Source: Patescibacteria group bacterium UBA6201
GTDB taxonomy: Bacteria > Patescibacteriota > Minisyncoccia > Phycocordibacterales > UBA918
Assembly (NCBI GenBank): GCA_002422025.1
Contig: DISV01000005.1
Span: forward strand, 203,518 to 267,517
Reading direction: 5' to 3'
Length of the DNA stretch: 64,000 bases
Shown: one piece after another, positions 9,359 to 41,700 of the stretch
Layout of the letters: every line of letters begins with the position of its first letter
Numbering within the stretch: the stretch's first letter is position 1
The notes under the pieces: model-generated
Databases searched by the model: none
Told to the model about the DNA's origin: nothing
The model's input: the letters and a program-made list of their open reading frames with translations, nothing else
Translations under genes and position numbers: made by a program

Positions 9359-9796
9359 TTATTGTGGGTCGGCACAAGAAGTGACCCCGATAGTTTTACT
9401 GTCAGTCCACCCAGCTGCTGTTGCGTCTTGTTCACGCTCAGCGATAGTCCAGAGTCGATAATATTGAGTGTCATTAGTAACAGATGGAGTAGCACAAGAG
9501 TTTTCATATGTATAGACATTTACACCAGCATTTACAGGATCGGTAGGTACAGAAAGTAGCAATCCAACTGTGACTAAGTCATTAAGATTAGAAGGATAAT
9601 TACCATATGTAACCCCATAAGCTTGCAGGGCAGCACCAAGTTGTTGGATGTCAGCGTGTCTGGCGGTGTCTCTAGCCTTTTTTCTTGAATCTTCAAATGA
9701 AGTAAAGACAATCAGTGAGAGTATTCCAATGATTGCTATTACTACAATAATTTCTATTAAGGTAAAACCCTGATTAGTTTTTAGATTGCTTTTCAT
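9359..9796 (-). CDS. type IV pilin / pseudopilin (prepilin-type N-terminal cleavage/methylation domain)
   Basis: MKSNLKTNQG|FTLIEIIVVIAIIGIL gives a class III signal with Phe+1 and Glu+5. Confidence 0.85.
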   Translation of the reverse strand: MKSNLKTNQGFTLIEIIVVIAIIGILSLIVFTSFEDSRKKARDTARHADIQQLGAALQAYGVTYGNYPSNLNDLVTVGLLLSVPTDPVNAGVNVYTYENSCATPSVTNDTQYYRLWTIAEREQDATAAGWTDSKTIGVTSCADPQ

Positions 9797-19200: not shown

Positions 19201-20814
19201 TTATTTCCAGCTCCGATCCGCGTACTTCGCTACCAGCGCTTCGACTTTTTTTCGGTTTTCCACGTCGGTCTCTGACATACCGGCATTCTGCCCGTAAAGG
19301 GAGAAGCCTAGTATGCTACCCTTCTTCACTACAAGGATGTAGGCGATGAAGAGTGCCCAGAGAGTAAGTACAGCGTAGAAGAGGAAGGTTAGGAATGCTC
19401 CAGCCTCAAAACCAGTATATGGAACTTGAGTAAGAGCGATTACTAGAGCCTGATCGCGCTTTTCGTAGACAGCGATGTCATCAACATCGACATCCACCTT
19501 ACAAGTACGACTTCCGCCATCTACACCTTCAGCTTTCATTCTAAATTCAGTAGATTGGTTGATGACCACATCGATTTCACCGTCCAGGTACTTCTTACGC
19601 TTAGAAGAGCTGTAGTCATCAGTGTCGAAAATGGTGTTGCCACGATCGTCCTTGATTACAATCTCGTCCACGTTAGTGGTTTCCCAAGAAAGTGTTACTT
19701 TCTCACCACGCTTTACACGGTCTTTAGAGATATCGAGCTCACAGCGAGGAGTCTTCTCATCTTCCTCTTCCTCAATTTCCACACGCACAGTACAGGTATC
19801 AGAACCATTTGTACCAGTGACAGTAAGGGTAAAAGTAATATCATCGTCTATTTCCACGGTCTTTGATCCATCAGCTGATACGTTACCAATACCCTGGTCG
19901 ATACTAACAGAGGTTGCGTTTGTGGTGTCCCATGTAAGAGTGACATCATCACCCTCTTCAACTACGTCGTCAGACACACGCAGGTAGTTACAAATTGGCG
20001 CTTCTGCAGCACTTTTAGTGATAGTTACAGTACAAGTATCATTACCACCAGCACCGACCGCAGTGAGCGTAAAGGTGACAGTTGAATTAACAAATACATT
20101 TTTAGACCCATCAGCAGAAACGTTTCCTACTCCGTTATCAATTGATACTGAAGTAGCGTTAGTAGTTGTCCAAGTAAGGACTACGTTGCCACCATTGTAT
20201 GGCACGGTATTTCTATCGGCTGTGAATGAGTCACAGGTTGCAGCGGGTGTTTGAGGTGGAGGACTTACTGTTACAGACGCTGTACAGCTAGCATTACCAC
20301 CAGCACCAACCGCAGTTAGAGTAAAAGTTGTATTACTCGTTACTGAAACGTTACTCGATCCACTGGTACCAACTGAACCAATACTAGTGATACTTACTGA
20401 TGTAGCGTTACTGGTGCTCCACGATAGAGTCACAGTACCACCGCCATAAGGTAAGCTAGTAGGGCTTGCAGTCAGGTAGTTACAGGTCGCAGGTGTTGGA
20501 GGAGGAGTGTATGGAGGAGGAGTGTATACAGGAGTGTTGTTATTTCCCCCACTCTCAGTGGTGCTACCACCATTGTTATTCCCTCCCTCACAACAACCGC
20601 TATCTCCACCATAACTACCATCGCTGTTGTTTCCACCACCAGTACTACCACCACTACCACCTCCGTCAAAGGCAGCGGCCTTATCAGCTGAAGTACTCAA
20701 TGAATCAACTGAGCTACCAATTTGAGGTAGTTGCGGCAGAACCACGAACATCATCAACGACAACGTTACAATAGCTGAAGCTCCGTAGATTGATATTTTA
20801 ATACTATTGGTCAT
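19201..20814 (-). CDS. surface protein with N-terminal signal/anchor, G/S/N-rich linker, PPxYTPPP stretch and 4 tandem Cys-containing Ig-like repeats. The C-terminus has a VPYTG motif followed by a TM segment and a KK tail.
   Basis: Repeats CNYLTASP...TLSWSTSNATSVSI...TFTLTAVGAGGNASCT recur four times. C-terminus is LTQVPYTGFEAG+hydrophobic+KKGS. Confidence 0.7.
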   Translation of the reverse strand: MTNSIKISIYGASAIVTLSLMMFVVLPQLPQIGSSVDSLSTSADKAAAFDGGGSGGSTGGGNNSDGSYGGDSGCCEGGNNNGGSTTESGGNNNTPVYTPPPYTPPPTPATCNYLTASPTSLPYGGGTVTLSWSTSNATSVSITSIGSVGTSGSSNVSVTSNTTFTLTAVGAGGNASCTASVTVSPPPQTPAATCDSFTADRNTVPYNGGNVVLTWTTTNATSVSIDNGVGNVSADGSKNVFVNSTVTFTLTAVGAGGNDTCTVTITKSAAEAPICNYLRVSDDVVEEGDDVTLTWDTTNATSVSIDQGIGNVSADGSKTVEIDDDITFTLTVTGTNGSDTCTVRVEIEEEEDEKTPRCELDISKDRVKRGEKVTLSWETTNVDEIVIKDDRGNTIFDTDDYSSSKRKKYLDGEIDVVINQSTEFRMKAEGVDGGSRTCKVDVDVDDIAVYEKRDQALVIALTQVPYTGFEAGAFLTFLFYAVLTLWALFIAYILVVKKGSILGFSLYGQNAGMSETDVENRKKVEALVAKYADRSWK

Positions 20815-20955
20815 ATTTTTTGAATAAATATTTTATAAAGTTTTGTAACTACCGGATCATCCCGGATATTGAGGTTTAATCATTTAAGCTCCAATATCCA
20901 AGATGATTAGAAATGCTGTGGGGAAGACATAAATGTCTTCCCCACAGGTTCTGAA

Positions 20956-21246
20956 TCATCTGCAACCCCATTCCCTTTTGGATTGTGCGAGCGAGCGTTT
21001 GTCGACCGGGCCGAAGTATGTCGTGCATTGTGCCCAGTCCACAATCGTTTCGAGGCGGTATTCGCAACAGTCAGTCCTGCGCGTGCCCTTCATTTCGCCG
21101 TTCATGTACGAGGCCCTGCAACCGCCCATGTTTCGGTCGCTCTTCGCGCTCCAGGTCGCGCACTGCGACCGGGAAGCCGCTGTAGCGATAGTGGCGTTGC
21201 TGATGCTACCGAGAACGAGTAGGCAGAGTGCGAGTGTTTTGATCAT
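20956..21246 (-). CDS. small secreted Cys-rich protein (96 aa, signal peptide, 6 Cys in mature part)
   Basis: MIKTLALCLLVLGSISNATIATAAS signal. SD aggagaag 6 nt upstream. Confidence 0.55.
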   Translation of the reverse strand: MIKTLALCLLVLGSISNATIATAASRSQCATWSAKSDRNMGGCRASYMNGEMKGTRRTDCCEYRLETIVDWAQCTTYFGPVDKRSLAQSKREWGCR

Positions 21247-21267
21247 AATCTTCTCCTGTCTCCTGTT

Positions 21268-21675
21268 TCAGTACATCGTGTAGGTTTTTCCGGACACCGT
21301 AACTGGGGGTGTCCAGATGACGCGATTCACGCACGAGGCGAAAACCGCCACCTGTTCGCCAGGCCGCCTCGACATCGTTATGCAGCGCTTGGTGACGGTT
21401 GGAAGAGGGGTGCTCTTCCAGGTTCCTTTGACGATGACCGGCTCCCACCAGCGCGTGCGCTGGCCTTTGTAGTAGCCGACGTCGAGCTGGTCCCAGTAGC
21501 CGTGACATACGGTTACCTTAATTTTGTTGGGAGTATGGTCGGTACCCTTGTAGGTTCGACCGTCGGTCGAGCGATTGCACTCGATGTCATTTGTGCGACA
21601 GGCATATGCCTTGCTGCAACCTACTGACATATAGAGTGCCATCACTGCGATGATAGCAAGAAGAATAGAACGCAT
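21268..21675 (-). CDS. small secreted/lipo- Cys-rich protein (135 aa)
   Basis: MRSILLAIIAVMALYMSVGC signal with a possible lipobox. Perfect SD aggagg 4 nt upstream. 6 Cys. Confidence 0.55.
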   Translation of the reverse strand: MRSILLAIIAVMALYMSVGCSKAYACRTNDIECNRSTDGRTYKGTDHTPNKIKVTVCHGYWDQLDVGYYKGQRTRWWEPVIVKGTWKSTPLPTVTKRCITMSRRPGEQVAVFASCVNRVIWTPPVTVSGKTYTMY

Positions 21676-21801
21676 GGCGTCCTCCTAAGGTTGTTGGGTT
21701 GACTGATTTTTCGAAGAACGAAAAGAGCAGAGAGGGGTCTTGGTTAATATAACTCCTAACCCCAGATTCTCTACAGAATAGCATATTAGAAGTGAAATGT
21801 C

Positions 21802-21828
21802 AAGGCCGCTCCCTTTGGGAGCGGCCTT
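21802..21828. terminator. hairpin aaggccgctccctttgggagcggcctt
   Basis: 12-bp stem between the sortase stop and the Cys-rich gene promoter region. Confidence 0.6.
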
Positions 21829-21857: not shown

Positions 21858-22529
21858 TTAAAGCGCTTTTTTTGAAACTAGGACCGCCTCTACGATAAAA
21901 CGGTCTTCCTTAGCGCCGAAAGTGTTACAAGTAGCCAAGGTTAAGCGCGCCCCGTTACTAGTGGTAGGGATTGATACACTGCTGGCCTTAGCTTGGTATA
22001 CCTTGTCTACACGGTAAGTATATTCAGTATCTCCTGACTTCAAAGTGATGGTATCTCCCCAGGTCATATTTTGAATACCATTAAAAGCCTGAAAGTTTTT
22101 GTTAAATACATTGTTTAGGTAGCTCGAATGACCAAGAATGAGCATATTGCCATTTTCGTCATTGAGGTCAGCTGAATCAGGGTGACGTACGACTCCCTTG
22201 AGCAAGGCAGCATCCAAATCAGGGATAGACCGTGATGTAGGGTTTAGGACGCTTACAGTGCGATTTAGACTGCCTAGAGTGATAGTTATTGGTCGCGGGT
22301 CACGAATATCCTCTAGTGCAGATGGAACCTCCTCAGTTTTCTCAGCAAAAGTAGATTCTTGATCTTCTACCGTTGTCTCTTCGTCAGTAGCAACCTCCTC
22401 AGATGGAGCCTCTGGCACGAAATCGATAAAATACAAAAAGCCGTAGCCAATCATCATTACAATAAAGAACACGCCCAGAAAAGCGCTGGCGCTAGGTAAG
22501 ATTTGGTTGAAAAAGTAAGAGAAATTCAT
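21858..22529 (-). CDS. sortase family transpeptidase
   Basis: N-terminal TM, the conserved His in LILGHS, the catalytic TLxTC as LTLATCNTFGAKEDRFIVEA. ATG at 22529 (the track start at 22532 is a TTG). Confidence 0.8.
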   Translation of the reverse strand: MNFSYFFNQILPSASAFLGVFFIVMMIGYGFLYFIDFVPEAPSEEVATDEETTVEDQESTFAEKTEEVPSALEDIRDPRPITITLGSLNRTVSVLNPTSRSIPDLDAALLKGVVRHPDSADLNDENGNMLILGHSSYLNNVFNKNFQAFNGIQNMTWGDTITLKSGDTEYTYRVDKVYQAKASSVSIPTTSNGARLTLATCNTFGAKEDRFIVEAVLVSKKAL

Positions 22530-22554
22530 CAAAATTGACTAATATTTGTCCGAA

Positions 22555-22621: not shown

Positions 22622-22955
22622 GGGGGTTGACCCCCACACCAGTTTTGTTATTGAAGACTTGCTTTTATCCTACGCTTAAGCTGAGCTAGGGCGTTACCGT
22701 CCTTTTTTAAGGACCACTCCCTGTGTCTTGCGTCATTTTCTAGCAAAAAAGCTTCGTAGTACCGTAGAGTAAAGGGTTCCCTCCCTTTCGTAGCAGGACT
22801 CTGACCTTGATTATGTTCAGCAAGTCTTCGTCTCAAGTCAGTAGTTGAACCTAGGTATAGTTGATTATCCCTTTGACTTTTAAGGATATATACATAAAAC
22901 ATCATTATATTATGATCTGATTCGTGACTATAACAAAACTGGTGTGGGGGTTGAC
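22622..22955. mobile_element. GIY-YIG gene cassette bracketed by 26-bp inverted repeats (IR-L 22626-22651 GTTGACCCCCACACCAGTTTTGTTAT; IR-R 22930-22955 ATAACAAAACTGGTGTGGGGGTTGAC)
   Basis: The IRs match 25/26. IR-L overlaps the stop codon. IR-R supplies an outward TTGACA -35 for the 23010 gene and an inward TTGTTA -35 for the GIY-YIG gene. Confidence 0.55.
22648..22905 (-). CDS. GIY-YIG nuclease domain protein (UPF0213/YhbQ-like, 85 aa)
   Basis: FYVYILKSQRDNQLYLGSTTDLRRRLAEHNQG is a GIY-YIG motif. Confidence 0.8.
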   Translation of the reverse strand: MMFYVYILKSQRDNQLYLGSTTDLRRRLAEHNQGQSPATKGREPFTLRYYEAFLLENDARHREWSLKKDGNALAQLKRRIKASLQ

Positions 22956-23009: not shown

Positions 23010-23759
23010 ATGAGCGATACCAATAATACAGAAAGGAACGAACAGATGGTAAGGATTATGGCCGTCGTTGGCTTTGTTGTGTTGATTTGTCTCTTGGCAT
23101 GGCTTGCTGTACAGGTTGTGCGCTTCGTACCAGTAGCCTTCTCTTCCCTGGCGGACATATTTGAACAGAATCAGCGTGATTACGCAGAGAATGTTAATGA
23201 GAATGGTGGCGAGGACACCATTGTTGTAGAAAATACTGAAACTAACCAAGACTCAGAAGTTGAGGATGAAGTGGTAGTTGAGGGAGACAACACAGTAGCC
23301 ACTTCTAGTACTCCAGTTGTTGTTGCCACAACTACTCCGGTAGCAACAACTCCTACACCGATTCAATATAAAACTGTGACCACATATAAGAAGCCGGTTT
23401 CAGACCCTAACGGTAAAACTGACCTCGCTATGACTTTCACTGGTGTTGGTAGTCTAAATTCTAATCAGCACTTTGTGCCAGGTAGCCTGCCAGACAGGGG
23501 TCAGGGTGCATTGCAGTTTGTGGTTAAGAACGTAGGTACTAAGACATCTATTGACTGGAGCTTCAAGCTCGATTTGCCAAATGGTGCCACAATGACTTCA
23601 AGTGTTCAGAAGCCACTCTTGCCAAGCGAGAGTTCAACACTGACTGTCACCTTTGAGATGAATAATGACGATTGGCATGATATCAATGGAACAGTAGTTG
23701 GGGGCGGAGACATAAATCTTGCCAACAATAGCTTTGTTGCAAAGGTTGCCAAACGATAA
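23010..23759 (+). CDS. membrane-anchored hypothetical surface protein (N-terminal TM, acidic and Thr-rich linker, beta-rich C-terminal domain)
   Basis: Hydrophobic segment IMAVVGFVVLICLLAWLAV. Promoter TTGACA-N16-TATCAT at 22951-22978. Confidence 0.55.
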   Translation: MSDTNNTERNEQMVRIMAVVGFVVLICLLAWLAVQVVRFVPVAFSSLADIFEQNQRDYAENVNENGGEDTIVVENTETNQDSEVEDEVVVEGDNTVATSSTPVVVATTTPVATTPTPIQYKTVTTYKKPVSDPNGKTDLAMTFTGVGSLNSNQHFVPGSLPDRGQGALQFVVKNVGTKTSIDWSFKLDLPNGATMTSSVQKPLLPSESSTLTVTFEMNNDDWHDINGTVVGGGDINLANNSFVAKVAKR

Positions 23760-40525: not shown

Positions 40526-41173
40526 TTATTCCGATACAATTTTCAACAGTTTTTCGTACTGCGCTTTTGGATTGGTCACTTTAAGAATATTTGAGCCGAC
40601 AGCAAAACGGTCGGCTCCGGCATTCTTCAAACTTAAAATATTTTCTTCATTTACAGCACCGTCAACGCTTAAGATTTGATTGGGATATAGCGCACGCAAG
40701 GTTGCAATTCTCTCTAGGACACGAACATCAAAAGGTTGACCTTGGCTACCAATTTCATCTATGCCCATCAATTGAACAAAGTCTACTGAATCTATGTATG
40801 GGTATAGTTCCTCAAGTGAAGTGCTGTTATTTAATGCTAAACCGATCTCACAAGTCAGCTTTGCTTTTAAATTAAAAATTTCATTTCGATCAACAAAACT
40901 TTCAAGGTGAAATATTAGTTTAGACGCCCCTACTTTTAGCCACCTGGTGCCGGCCATCAGTCCGTCCCGAACCATTAAATCCACCTCGAACAGTCTCCCG
41001 CCCAGGTATTCTCTTACTTCCTCTACGTCACCGCTTGGATCGTATGGCCAGGAAACATCTTTAACAAACTCACCGTCTACCACATCTATCTGTATAGTCT
41101 CAGCAAAAGAAAGCAGTTCTAACTTTTCTTTTAAGTCATCCAGTGACTTTGGAATTATGGCAGGAATTATCAT
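40526..41173 (-). CDS. rpe: ribulose-phosphate 3-epimerase-like protein
   Basis: IQIDVVDGEFV and LMGIDEIGSQGQPF resemble the Rpe DVMDGxFVPN / GFGGQxF motifs. Confidence 0.65.
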   Translation of the reverse strand: MIIPAIIPKSLDDLKEKLELLSFAETIQIDVVDGEFVKDVSWPYDPSGDVEEVREYLGGRLFEVDLMVRDGLMAGTRWLKVGASKLIFHLESFVDRNEIFNLKAKLTCEIGLALNNSTSLEELYPYIDSVDFVQLMGIDEIGSQGQPFDVRVLERIATLRALYPNQILSVDGAVNEENILSLKNAGADRFAVGSNILKVTNPKAQYEKLLKIVSE

Positions 41174-41700
41174 ACATCTACTTCGAGTGTGCAGAGGGTG
41201 TCATCTCCCGTGTTAGCAGCAGTGGTCTTGTCTAAGAGACAGTCCTTGTTATTTCCCTCCATAAAGTATCTGATTGTGTATGCCTTGCCGTAATTTTGAT
41301 GAATATAAACCATTCCTTCATATTCAGTCCCTCCTCCTTGTCCGAACATAATAGTCTCACCGGCTGGAATCATACCCATATAGTGAGGAGTGATAGCATC
41401 AGAAATTGCTGTTCTTTCGAGGTTACCACTACCGTTGGCCCAACAAGCATTGTCTGGGTAATCCCCAAGGCACATAGTGGCAGTGGCTCCACTACCGAAT
41501 CGTGGATAATGACCCGTATCTGAATAATAAAGGTCAAAGGCTTTTTGGTACTCCTTGATTTGTGCGACTCGAGCGACATTTCGTGAATGTTCACGACTAT
41601 CAGAAAGAGCCACCATTACTATTGCTGCAATAATTCCAATAATTGCAACAACTACCAAAAGTTCTATTAAAGTGAAGCCAGTCCGTGATGAGTTTCGCAT
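41170..41700 (-). CDS. type IV pilin-like protein (prepilin N-terminal domain)
   Basis: MRNSSRTG|FTLIELLVVVAIIGII. Inserted between rpiB and rpe. Confidence 0.85.
   Translation of the reverse strand: MRNSSRTGFTLIELLVVVAIIGIIAAIVMVALSDSREHSRNVARVAQIKEYQKAFDLYYSDTGHYPRFGSGATATMCLGDYPDNACWANGSGNLERTAISDAITPHYMGMIPAGETIMFGQGGGTEYEGMVYIHQNYGKAYTIRYFMEGNNKDCLLDKTTAANTGDDTLCTLEVDV

Follow-up and report, generated by a model that had tools for sequence, protein, structure and literature searches.

Does a short GC-rich patch within a sortase locus mark DNA of foreign origin, or is it an old component of the locus that retains its unusual composition? This question is raised by a stretch of 64,000 nucleotides from Patescibacteria group bacterium UBA6201 (GenBank assembly GCA_002422025.1, contig DISV01000005.1, positions 203,518 to 267,517), hereafter called the window, in which two small minus-strand genes, designated A and B, are located between the gene for a sortase and the gene for a large surface protein. 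The initial annotation of this DNA, made from the sequence alone, had interpreted the patch as a recent horizontal insert encoding two exported cysteine-rich proteins. Our comparative analysis bears out the two genes, their location and their deviating composition, but the unit of A and its downstream partner gene proved to be a fixed, ancestral part of the sortase/surface locus in one Saccharibacteria clade, and its alternative forms have been exchanged by homologous recombination.

The GC-rich patch itself is confirmed. Averaged over 200 nucleotides, the GC content rises from about 0.35-0.45 to 0.52-0.615 between positions 20900 and 21600 and then drops back, in agreement with the jump over roughly 0.7 kb noted before. 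Averaged over 600 nucleotides, the segment 21001-21600 reaches 0.573 and no other in the 64 kb exceeds 0.50, with a mean of 0.429 for the window as a whole; the region 20950-21650, with 0.55-0.61, is the sole GC outlier. Genes A and B have a GC content of 0.55-0.58 compared to 0.43 in the window. The increase starts at about position 21600, past the signal-peptide codons of A, and the GC content of these codons, of the promoter and of the 5' untranslated region (5'UTR) is ordinary. For the GC content at third codon positions (GC3), the expectation for each gene was simulated 5000 times from its own amino acids and the codon table of the window. Gene A has a GC3 of 0.67 versus 0.39 expected (z = 7.3) and gene B of 0.70 versus 0.38 (z = 7.1), and none of the 5000 simulations was as high in either case, while the sortase gene, the surface gene, rpsI, rpsK and dnaK are within about two standard deviations of their expectation in the same test. 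The window also contains two type IV pilin-like genes on the minus strand (9359-9796 and 41170-41700) whose N-termini carry GFTLIE motifs. With GC3 values of 0.26 and 0.35 these genes are ordinary, and the bias is hence not common to all surface-appendage genes.

Gene A (21268-21675, minus strand) encodes a protein of 135 amino acids with a Sec signal peptide that is predicted to be cleaved after AYA25. Gene B (20956-21246, minus strand), one of the two alternative partners of A, encodes 96 amino acids including a signal peptide (AxA followed by AS) that leaves a mature part of about 72 residues. Both signal peptides are of the n-h-c type and end with AxA, and the Shine-Dalgarno sequences AGGAGG and AGGAGA are placed 6-7 nucleotides ahead of the respective ATG. 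Six cysteines had been ascribed to each mature protein; this is true for B, which has six invariant cysteines including a CC pair, but not for A, whose mature part harbors five conserved cysteines, the sixth (C20) being an unconserved residue inside the signal peptide. The homologues of A keep the signal peptide and a series of motifs in the order C-x6-C, VxVCHxYW, WW.P, W, C, PG, C and G.Y. We found 25 representatives of the A family among 1.84 billion cluster representatives and four relatives of B among 5.8 billion proteins, each of them encoded directly 3' of an A gene. In the AlphaFold2 model of A, residues 50-135 form a beta-sandwich with predicted local distance difference test (pLDDT) values of about 90 or more, and the protein is modelled as a generic beta-sandwich without recognisable catalytic site; the model of B, which was built from two sequences, is unusable (pLDDT 56).

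The gene order was read on all contigs that carry a homologue of A or B and are long enough. It recurs as gyrB, a membrane protein gene on the opposite strand (about 250-350 amino acids), the sortase gene, A, the partner gene, the large surface protein gene and thrS in 12 or more Saccharibacteria loci, comprising L001-L004, L006-L009, L015-L018 and L020 as well as on a 69-kb JGI contig. One of the syntenic loci belongs to a metagenome-assembled genome deposited as Candidatus Saccharibacteria, whose GyrB is 87% identical to that of the window. Even the distant A homologue P0012 (33% identity, locus L011) is located downstream of a sortase gene and upstream of a surface protein gene. L011, the most distant locus, has an additional gene (1497-2030) between the sortase gene and A, which encodes an exported protein of 177 amino acids whose tail is acidic and rich in Gly, Thr and Pro. 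All homologues of A and B with a readable context are found in the same kind of locus. No relative that lacks the proposed insert came to light, as A and a partner gene are present in every related locus recovered. The presence of the unit at the same site in each of them documents that it is a fixed component of the locus rather than an insertion peculiar to the genome of the window.

The gene that follows A occurs in two types. It is B in the window, L003/L004, L008, L014, L020 and the JGI contig, and an unrelated gene C in L001/L002, L006, L007, L009 and L015-L018. The C protein has 131-138 amino acids (about 110 by a shorter count) and ends with DPACVGGxxWCAxRGL; some representatives exhibit a lipobox (LSGC, LTAC or LAGC). 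Profile alignments with hhalign revealed that B and C, and likewise A and C, have only their signal peptides in common. The closest pair, the window and L001, differs in type: GyrB is 95%, DnaE 94%, the sortase 91% and the surface protein 79% identical between them, but for A the value is only 54%, and the partner genes show no relationship. The A protein itself is a mosaic. Its signal peptide and residues 26-68 track the relationship of the species (54% and 65% identity between the window and L001), whereas residues 69-135 group into two clades in line with the type of partner, with identities of 65-92% and 48-88% within and 35-52% between the clades.

The same break is visible in the DNA. 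In gyrB, the membrane protein gene and the sortase gene the nucleotide identity to L001 amounts to 80-83%, and it drops to 69% in the promoter and the 5' portion of A; blastn homology is then lost at position 21476, returns in a conserved patch of 38 nucleotides (20868-20831) and resumes from 20485 onwards. The exchanged tract (20486-21475, minus strand), which is unalignable or weakly alignable with L001, thus takes in two-thirds of A (its 3' part), the whole of B and, apart from the conserved patch, about 110 codons at the start of the surface gene. A corresponding difference is seen at the tip of the surface protein, with AFDGGGSGGS.GG..Y.G.YGGDSGC in all four B-type loci and AFG[EGS]SGG in all seven C-type loci with a readable N-terminus of this protein. 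The mosaic structure of A, the homology break within the gene and the co-variation of partner type and surface tip show that the block from the middle of A to the tip of the surface gene is exchanged between lineages by homologous recombination. Saccharibacteria are naturally competent (PMC10633639), which provides a route for cassette exchange. The swap substituted one allele of the module for another and is not an insertion. Nor can the exchange be called recent, since synonymous sites have reached saturation even in the comparison of the window with L001. The horizontal component of the initial annotation is accordingly retained as recombinational exchange relative to L001 and discarded as recent insertion.

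A, B and C are uncharacterised protein families. Scans of all three against Pfam, NCBIfam and PADLOC returned noise at the level of signal peptides only, profile searches against the PDB yielded nothing below E = 0.1, and no significant sequence match or specific fold match links A or B to solved structures in the PDB or to known pilins. In a tblastn search the rest of the 64-kb window contained no paralogues of the three genes, A had no match in collections of phages, plasmids and viral contigs, and our literature searches retrieved no description of the proteins or of the locus. The suggested identity as bacteriocins, toxins or inhibitors thus found no support in Pfam, NCBIfam, PADLOC or the PDB. 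A double-glycine leader as in class II bacteriocins is missing in A and B, which have Sec-type AxA signal peptides instead. Neither A (ending with SGKTYTMY) nor B (ending with KREWGCR) contains an LPXTG-like motif, a transmembrane segment or an invariant lysine of the pilin-motif kind. The only candidate for a lipobox in A is the non-canonical SVGC20, which is missing from the homologues, where AxA is followed by the first conserved cysteine, and B has no cysteine at the cleavage region.

The near-consensus promoter ahead of A and the hairpin past B indicate that the two genes form an autonomous operon, which is predicted to have its own strong promoter and its own terminator. The extended -10 promoter (21775-21803, minus strand) consists of TTGACA, a spacing of 17 nucleotides with TGc, and TATTCT; with ten of twelve matches plus the TG it is the best of the region. 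The pattern TTGAC(A/T)-17-TGn-TAnnnT is found upstream of A in all 12 related loci. The -35 box is overlapped by the terminator hairpin of the sortase gene (21802-21828, minus strand; AAGGCCGCTCCC / GGGAGCGGCCTT), a perfect inverted repeat of 12 nucleotides that is also present in L001. At the other end, a terminator-like hairpin with a perfect 15-bp stem closes the unit (20916-20947, minus strand), and a different hairpin occupies the equivalent place in L001. No Rfam match was obtained in 20900-21800, and a scan of the region gave only terminator-like noise near 19050.

The 5'UTR of the window has a length of about 93 nucleotides (21676-21768, minus strand) and contains a 5'-proximal stem-loop (GGGGTT...GACCCC) as well as the Shine-Dalgarno sequence AGGAGG; its first 60 nucleotides fold with -14.1 kcal/mol. 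Across the loci the 5'UTRs range from about 70 to 230 nucleotides and start with a hairpin, which in eight of twelve loci stands between two GTTCY pentamers that are 12-39 nucleotides apart. The background frequency of the pentamer is 0.0016 per nucleotide, corresponding to about 0.09 expected copies per 60 nucleotides. Leaders with GTTCY were seen in the window (21676-21775), where only one canonical copy is present, and in L001 (9650-9750), L003, L006, L008, L011, L016, L018 and L020. The variable spacing suggests that the GTTCY-flanked hairpin is an element acting at the RNA level. A MAFFT-based consensus fold of the 5'UTRs was not obtained, the hairpins being of different length.

What might such an operon do? 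We favor a reading to which we give slightly less than an even chance, namely that the autonomous, strongly expressed and ancestral operon of A and its partner encodes a module for the surface or for host contact, which is exchangeable and acts together with the sortase-linked surface protein. Promoter, hairpin-containing 5'UTR, A, B and terminator would constitute a strongly expressed bicistronic operon, and its C-rich, stable mRNA would sustain high expression. The A protein and its partner (B or C) would probably form an extracellular complex, possibly linked by disulfides, which may act at or with the distal tip of the stalk-like surface protein and could serve on the epibiont surface as an exchangeable module for contact or recognition.

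A different role, which we regard as rather improbable, is that of a polymorphic exported effector pair, i.e., a toxin or bacteriocin with its immunity or helper protein, directed against the host or competing epibionts, with the two forms as incompatibility types. The proteins are small, disulfide-rich and exported as expected for such a pair, the promoter is strong, the two non-homologous partners co-vary with the C-terminal part of A, and some C proteins carry a lipobox as a self-protecting immunity lipoprotein would. However, the scans with Pfam, NCBIfam and PADLOC detected no toxin, enzyme or immunity domain, and the plain beta-sandwich of A lacks a recognisable catalytic site. A free toxin would not be expected to be linked so strictly to the genes for sortase and surface protein, nor to go with a co-varying tip, and only two forms were seen, whereas polymorphic toxin loci usually carry many.

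The second question concerns the composition. A and its partner gene exceed gyrB, the sortase gene, the surface gene and thrS by 0.10-0.15 in GC and by 0.2-0.3 in GC3 in every locus, and this offset spans loci with an overall GC content of 0.39-0.55. At 4-fold degenerate sites the frequency of C is 0.34-0.43 in the GC-rich island of every locus compared to genome values of 0.09-0.32, while that of G mostly tracks the genome, with 0.08 in the locus of 39% GC. The proportion of synonymous differences (pS) is 0.43-0.9 in all available pairs, indicating that synonymous sites are near saturation; for the same reason, a comparison of synonymous divergence between island and flanks is uninformative. 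A decaying donor signature should have disappeared at such sites, which argues that the bias is actively kept and not passively inherited. High GC is a property of the module and not a mark of foreign origin.

The most likely explanation for the maintained bias is selection on the mRNA for C-ending codons and for a compact, unusually stable fold. The RNA coding for the mature part of A is 7-23 kcal/mol more stable than shuffled sequences that keep protein and codon usage. Compared to synonymous-codon shuffles, z ranges from -1.4 to -5.1 in ten of ten loci, and compared to dinucleotide shuffles from -1.3 to -5.1; the values for the window are -3.7 to -4.8. The controls (genes for ribosomal proteins, a pilin and GIY-YIG, and parts of the sortase and surface genes) gave z values between -1.3 and +1.6. 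In seven of seven loci the sense strand of A is more extreme than the antisense strand, which points to RNA and not DNA as the relevant molecule. B has a high GC3 with little or no folding in excess of its composition, and the C genes gave a mixed result relative to synonymous shuffles (z from +0.7 to -3.4). Two further candidates were rejected. Translational selection of the kind that acts on highly expressed genes is contradicted by the ribosomal protein genes, EF-Ts, DnaK and GAPDH of the window, which are devoid of a bias for C at third positions (C/(C+T) = 0.49, 4-fold C = 0.15). A positionally conserved RNA structure in A was dismissed on the basis of a non-significant alifold consensus (z = -1.5), with local hairpins common to subsets of the sequences only.

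GC-biased gene conversion at a recombining locus is the weaker alternative to selection on mRNA and codons, and we consider it quite doubtful. Recombination is documented by the mosaic of A, the cassette swap and the apparently replaced thrS gene, and in the window the 4-fold sites of the island are raised in both G and C. Yet the enrichment is strand-asymmetric, as the frequency of C at 4-fold sites in L006 is 0.42 versus 0.08 for G, the latter reaching 0.22 in the window. It ends at the gene borders and does not extend to the codons for the signal peptide, the UTR or the surface-gene tip, the last being counted within the exchanged tract. Finally, the A mRNA carries more structure than shuffles of matched composition, and this excess is larger on the sense strand. 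A more far-reaching extension of selection on the mRNA, unlikely but worth stating, is that A and its partner form a dimorphic recognition module on the tip of the stalk that decides to which host or partner cells this clade can attach, and that the structured mRNA and the conserved GUUCY-hairpin-GUUCY leader would together serve a dedicated post-transcriptional purpose, either stability or the regulation of translation, and be kept by selection in genomes of 39-55% GC. If this were true, local GC would be a sign of selection acting on the mRNA and not of foreign origin.

The recent insertion of un-ameliorated DNA from a high-GC donor, for example an actinobacterial host, is largely refuted and retains a very small probability. 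This idea draws on the strong deviation of composition and codon usage, on the difference between the cassette and that of the closest relative, and on a neighborhood active in recombination, where thrS seems to have been replaced and a GIY-YIG gene inserted. It is at odds with the distribution of the unit, which occupies one and the same position in all related loci and has an elevated GC content in every one, with an offset that tracks the GC content of the genome. Homologues outside such loci were seen neither in the searched sets of 5.8 and 1.84 billion proteins nor in the phage and plasmid collections. The codon pattern does not fit either. In the window the preference moves from NNT to NNC codons (TGC, TAC, GAC, ATC, TTC, CTC, GGC, CGC, ACC) plus some NCG, whereas the codons for Lys and Glu in A and B are unshifted (AAA and GAA are retained) and CTG is used in none of twelve cases; such a C-ending-only bias is unlike that of typical high-GC bacteria. 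The saturation of synonymous sites among the relatives also speaks against a recent event. Flanking repeats, tRNA genes and an integrase are missing at the patch, whose direct neighbors are the sortase and surface genes; the GIY-YIG gene is 1 kb away from the A-B unit, beyond the sortase gene.

The least tenable reading, already refuted, would dismiss A and B as artefacts of GC-rich non-coding DNA, which does yield long spurious open reading frames (ORFs), but the cysteine pattern, signal peptides and Shine-Dalgarno sequences are kept in homologues, the pairwise ratios of nonsynonymous to synonymous substitution rates (dN/dS) are 0.09-0.19 for A and 0.22-0.35 for B (0.09-0.35 overall), GC3 in the called frames clearly exceeds GC1 and GC2, and the modelled core of A is confident. 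One such spurious frame is the antisense ORF 20933-21283 (plus strand, 116 amino acids), which is longer than B and would mislead a length-based gene caller; it is a by-product of GC richness. Similar antisense ORFs occur in the GC-rich patch of L006, L007, L015 and L018.

The neighboring genes define the surface context of the operon. The sortase (21858-22532, minus strand) exhibits an N-terminal transmembrane segment, the histidine in LILGHSSY and the catalytic TLATC and is recognised by Pfam PF04203 (E = 1.3e-17), while the NCBIfam sortase models match it below their subfamily cut-offs. The large surface protein (19201-20814, minus strand, 537 amino acids) consists of a signal peptide, a Gly-rich tip that ends with GGDSGCC, immunoglobulin (Ig)-like repeats with two cysteines and a weak match to the Filamin repeat, and a C-terminus with VPYTGFEAG, a transmembrane segment and KK. 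A Gly-rich stretch ending with GDSGC[CG] just past the signal peptide is present in every stalk-like surface protein, including those of L011 and L019, and corresponds to 20590-20680 in the window (codons 45-75, approximately, of the surface gene). The conserved arrangement VPYTGFEAG, transmembrane segment and KK at the C-terminus (19201-19425) resembles a sorting signal. It is followed by a conserved tail of 45 amino acids (ENRKKVEALVAKYA), and the corresponding tails of L015, L016 and L020 comprise about 200-290 amino acids; a long tail behind a putative sorting signal is unusual for sortase substrates.

On the other side of the sortase gene, a divergent gene for a membrane-anchored protein of 249 amino acids (23010-23759, plus strand) lies between gyrB and the sortase gene, as in all long loci. 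In the window a stand-alone GIY-YIG gene of 85 codons (22648-22905, minus strand) is placed in a segment of about 310 nucleotides (22632-22942) that is missing in L001, where the membrane protein gene adjoins the sortase gene, and that is found in no related locus; it looks like a small mobile insertion. The thrS gene (16928-18781, plus strand) is of a long form whose product is 47% identical to that of the 408-aa thrS of L001, in contrast to 94% identity for the adjacent dnaE and 95% for gyrB. Both long and short thrS forms occur among the related loci, and the gene beside the surface locus looks like a xenologous replacement.

The locus has features in common with several known systems. Bacteria of the Candidate Phyla Radiation encode sortases and an extracytoplasmic disulfide machinery of the MdbA/VKOR type (PMC6744442). 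A and B resemble the accessory genes of sortase-linked adhesins and pilins of Gram-positive bacteria in adjoining a sortase gene and the gene for a surface protein with multiple Ig repeats and in encoding exported, disulfide-containing products. They differ from Gram-positive tip and accessory proteins in the missing LPXTG-like signal and pilin-motif lysine and in having no relation to known pilins, and the stalk-like protein differs from usual sortase substrates in that its putative VPYTG and transmembrane signal precedes a long tail. The Ig-like pilins PamA and PamB of the Saccharimonadia-specific Pam pili are small, exported proteins with paired cysteines and a role in surface or host contact, and the pam operon is located beside ATP synthase genes and includes PamC and PamD, chaperones that are anchored in the membrane (bioRxiv 10.64898/2026.03.03.709456). 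Like them, A is a small exported cysteine-containing protein from a surface locus. However, judged by the published description, the locus between gyrB and thrS with its sortase has a different context, and A is a single sandwich of about 85 residues and not a two-domain pilin. By this context, the A-B locus does not appear to be the Pam pilus operon.

With respect to exchange, the module is comparable to allelic cassettes that are exchanged by transformation, such as those for pherotypes and surface antigens, in having alternative alleles at a fixed site, breakpoints in conserved flanks or inside a gene, and a distribution that is incongruent with the flanks. It differs from pherotype cassettes, which hold a peptide pheromone and its receptor, and from capsule loci in that it consists of two orphan exported proteins and that both forms maintain the unusual composition in every lineage. 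The deviation of local GC and codon usage by about seven standard deviations is reminiscent of genomic islands with atypical GC, but the unit occupies an identical position in all relatives, is free of mobility genes and boundary repeats, and shows a bias that is not donor-like and outlasts synonymous saturation. The locus provides a caution for genome scanning. An island of GC and codon usage is normally scored as recent transfer; here it marks an ancient, vertically fixed site with maintained composition and excess mRNA structure.

Saccharibacteria are obligate epibionts, and to our knowledge the ways in which they recognise and hold their hosts are largely unknown. The locus described here offers a concrete candidate for the host-contact interface, i.e., a pair of exported orphan proteins that is conserved and exchangeable, stands under a strong promoter and is linked to a sortase and a stalk-like surface protein. 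Natural transformation now permits the testing of such candidates.

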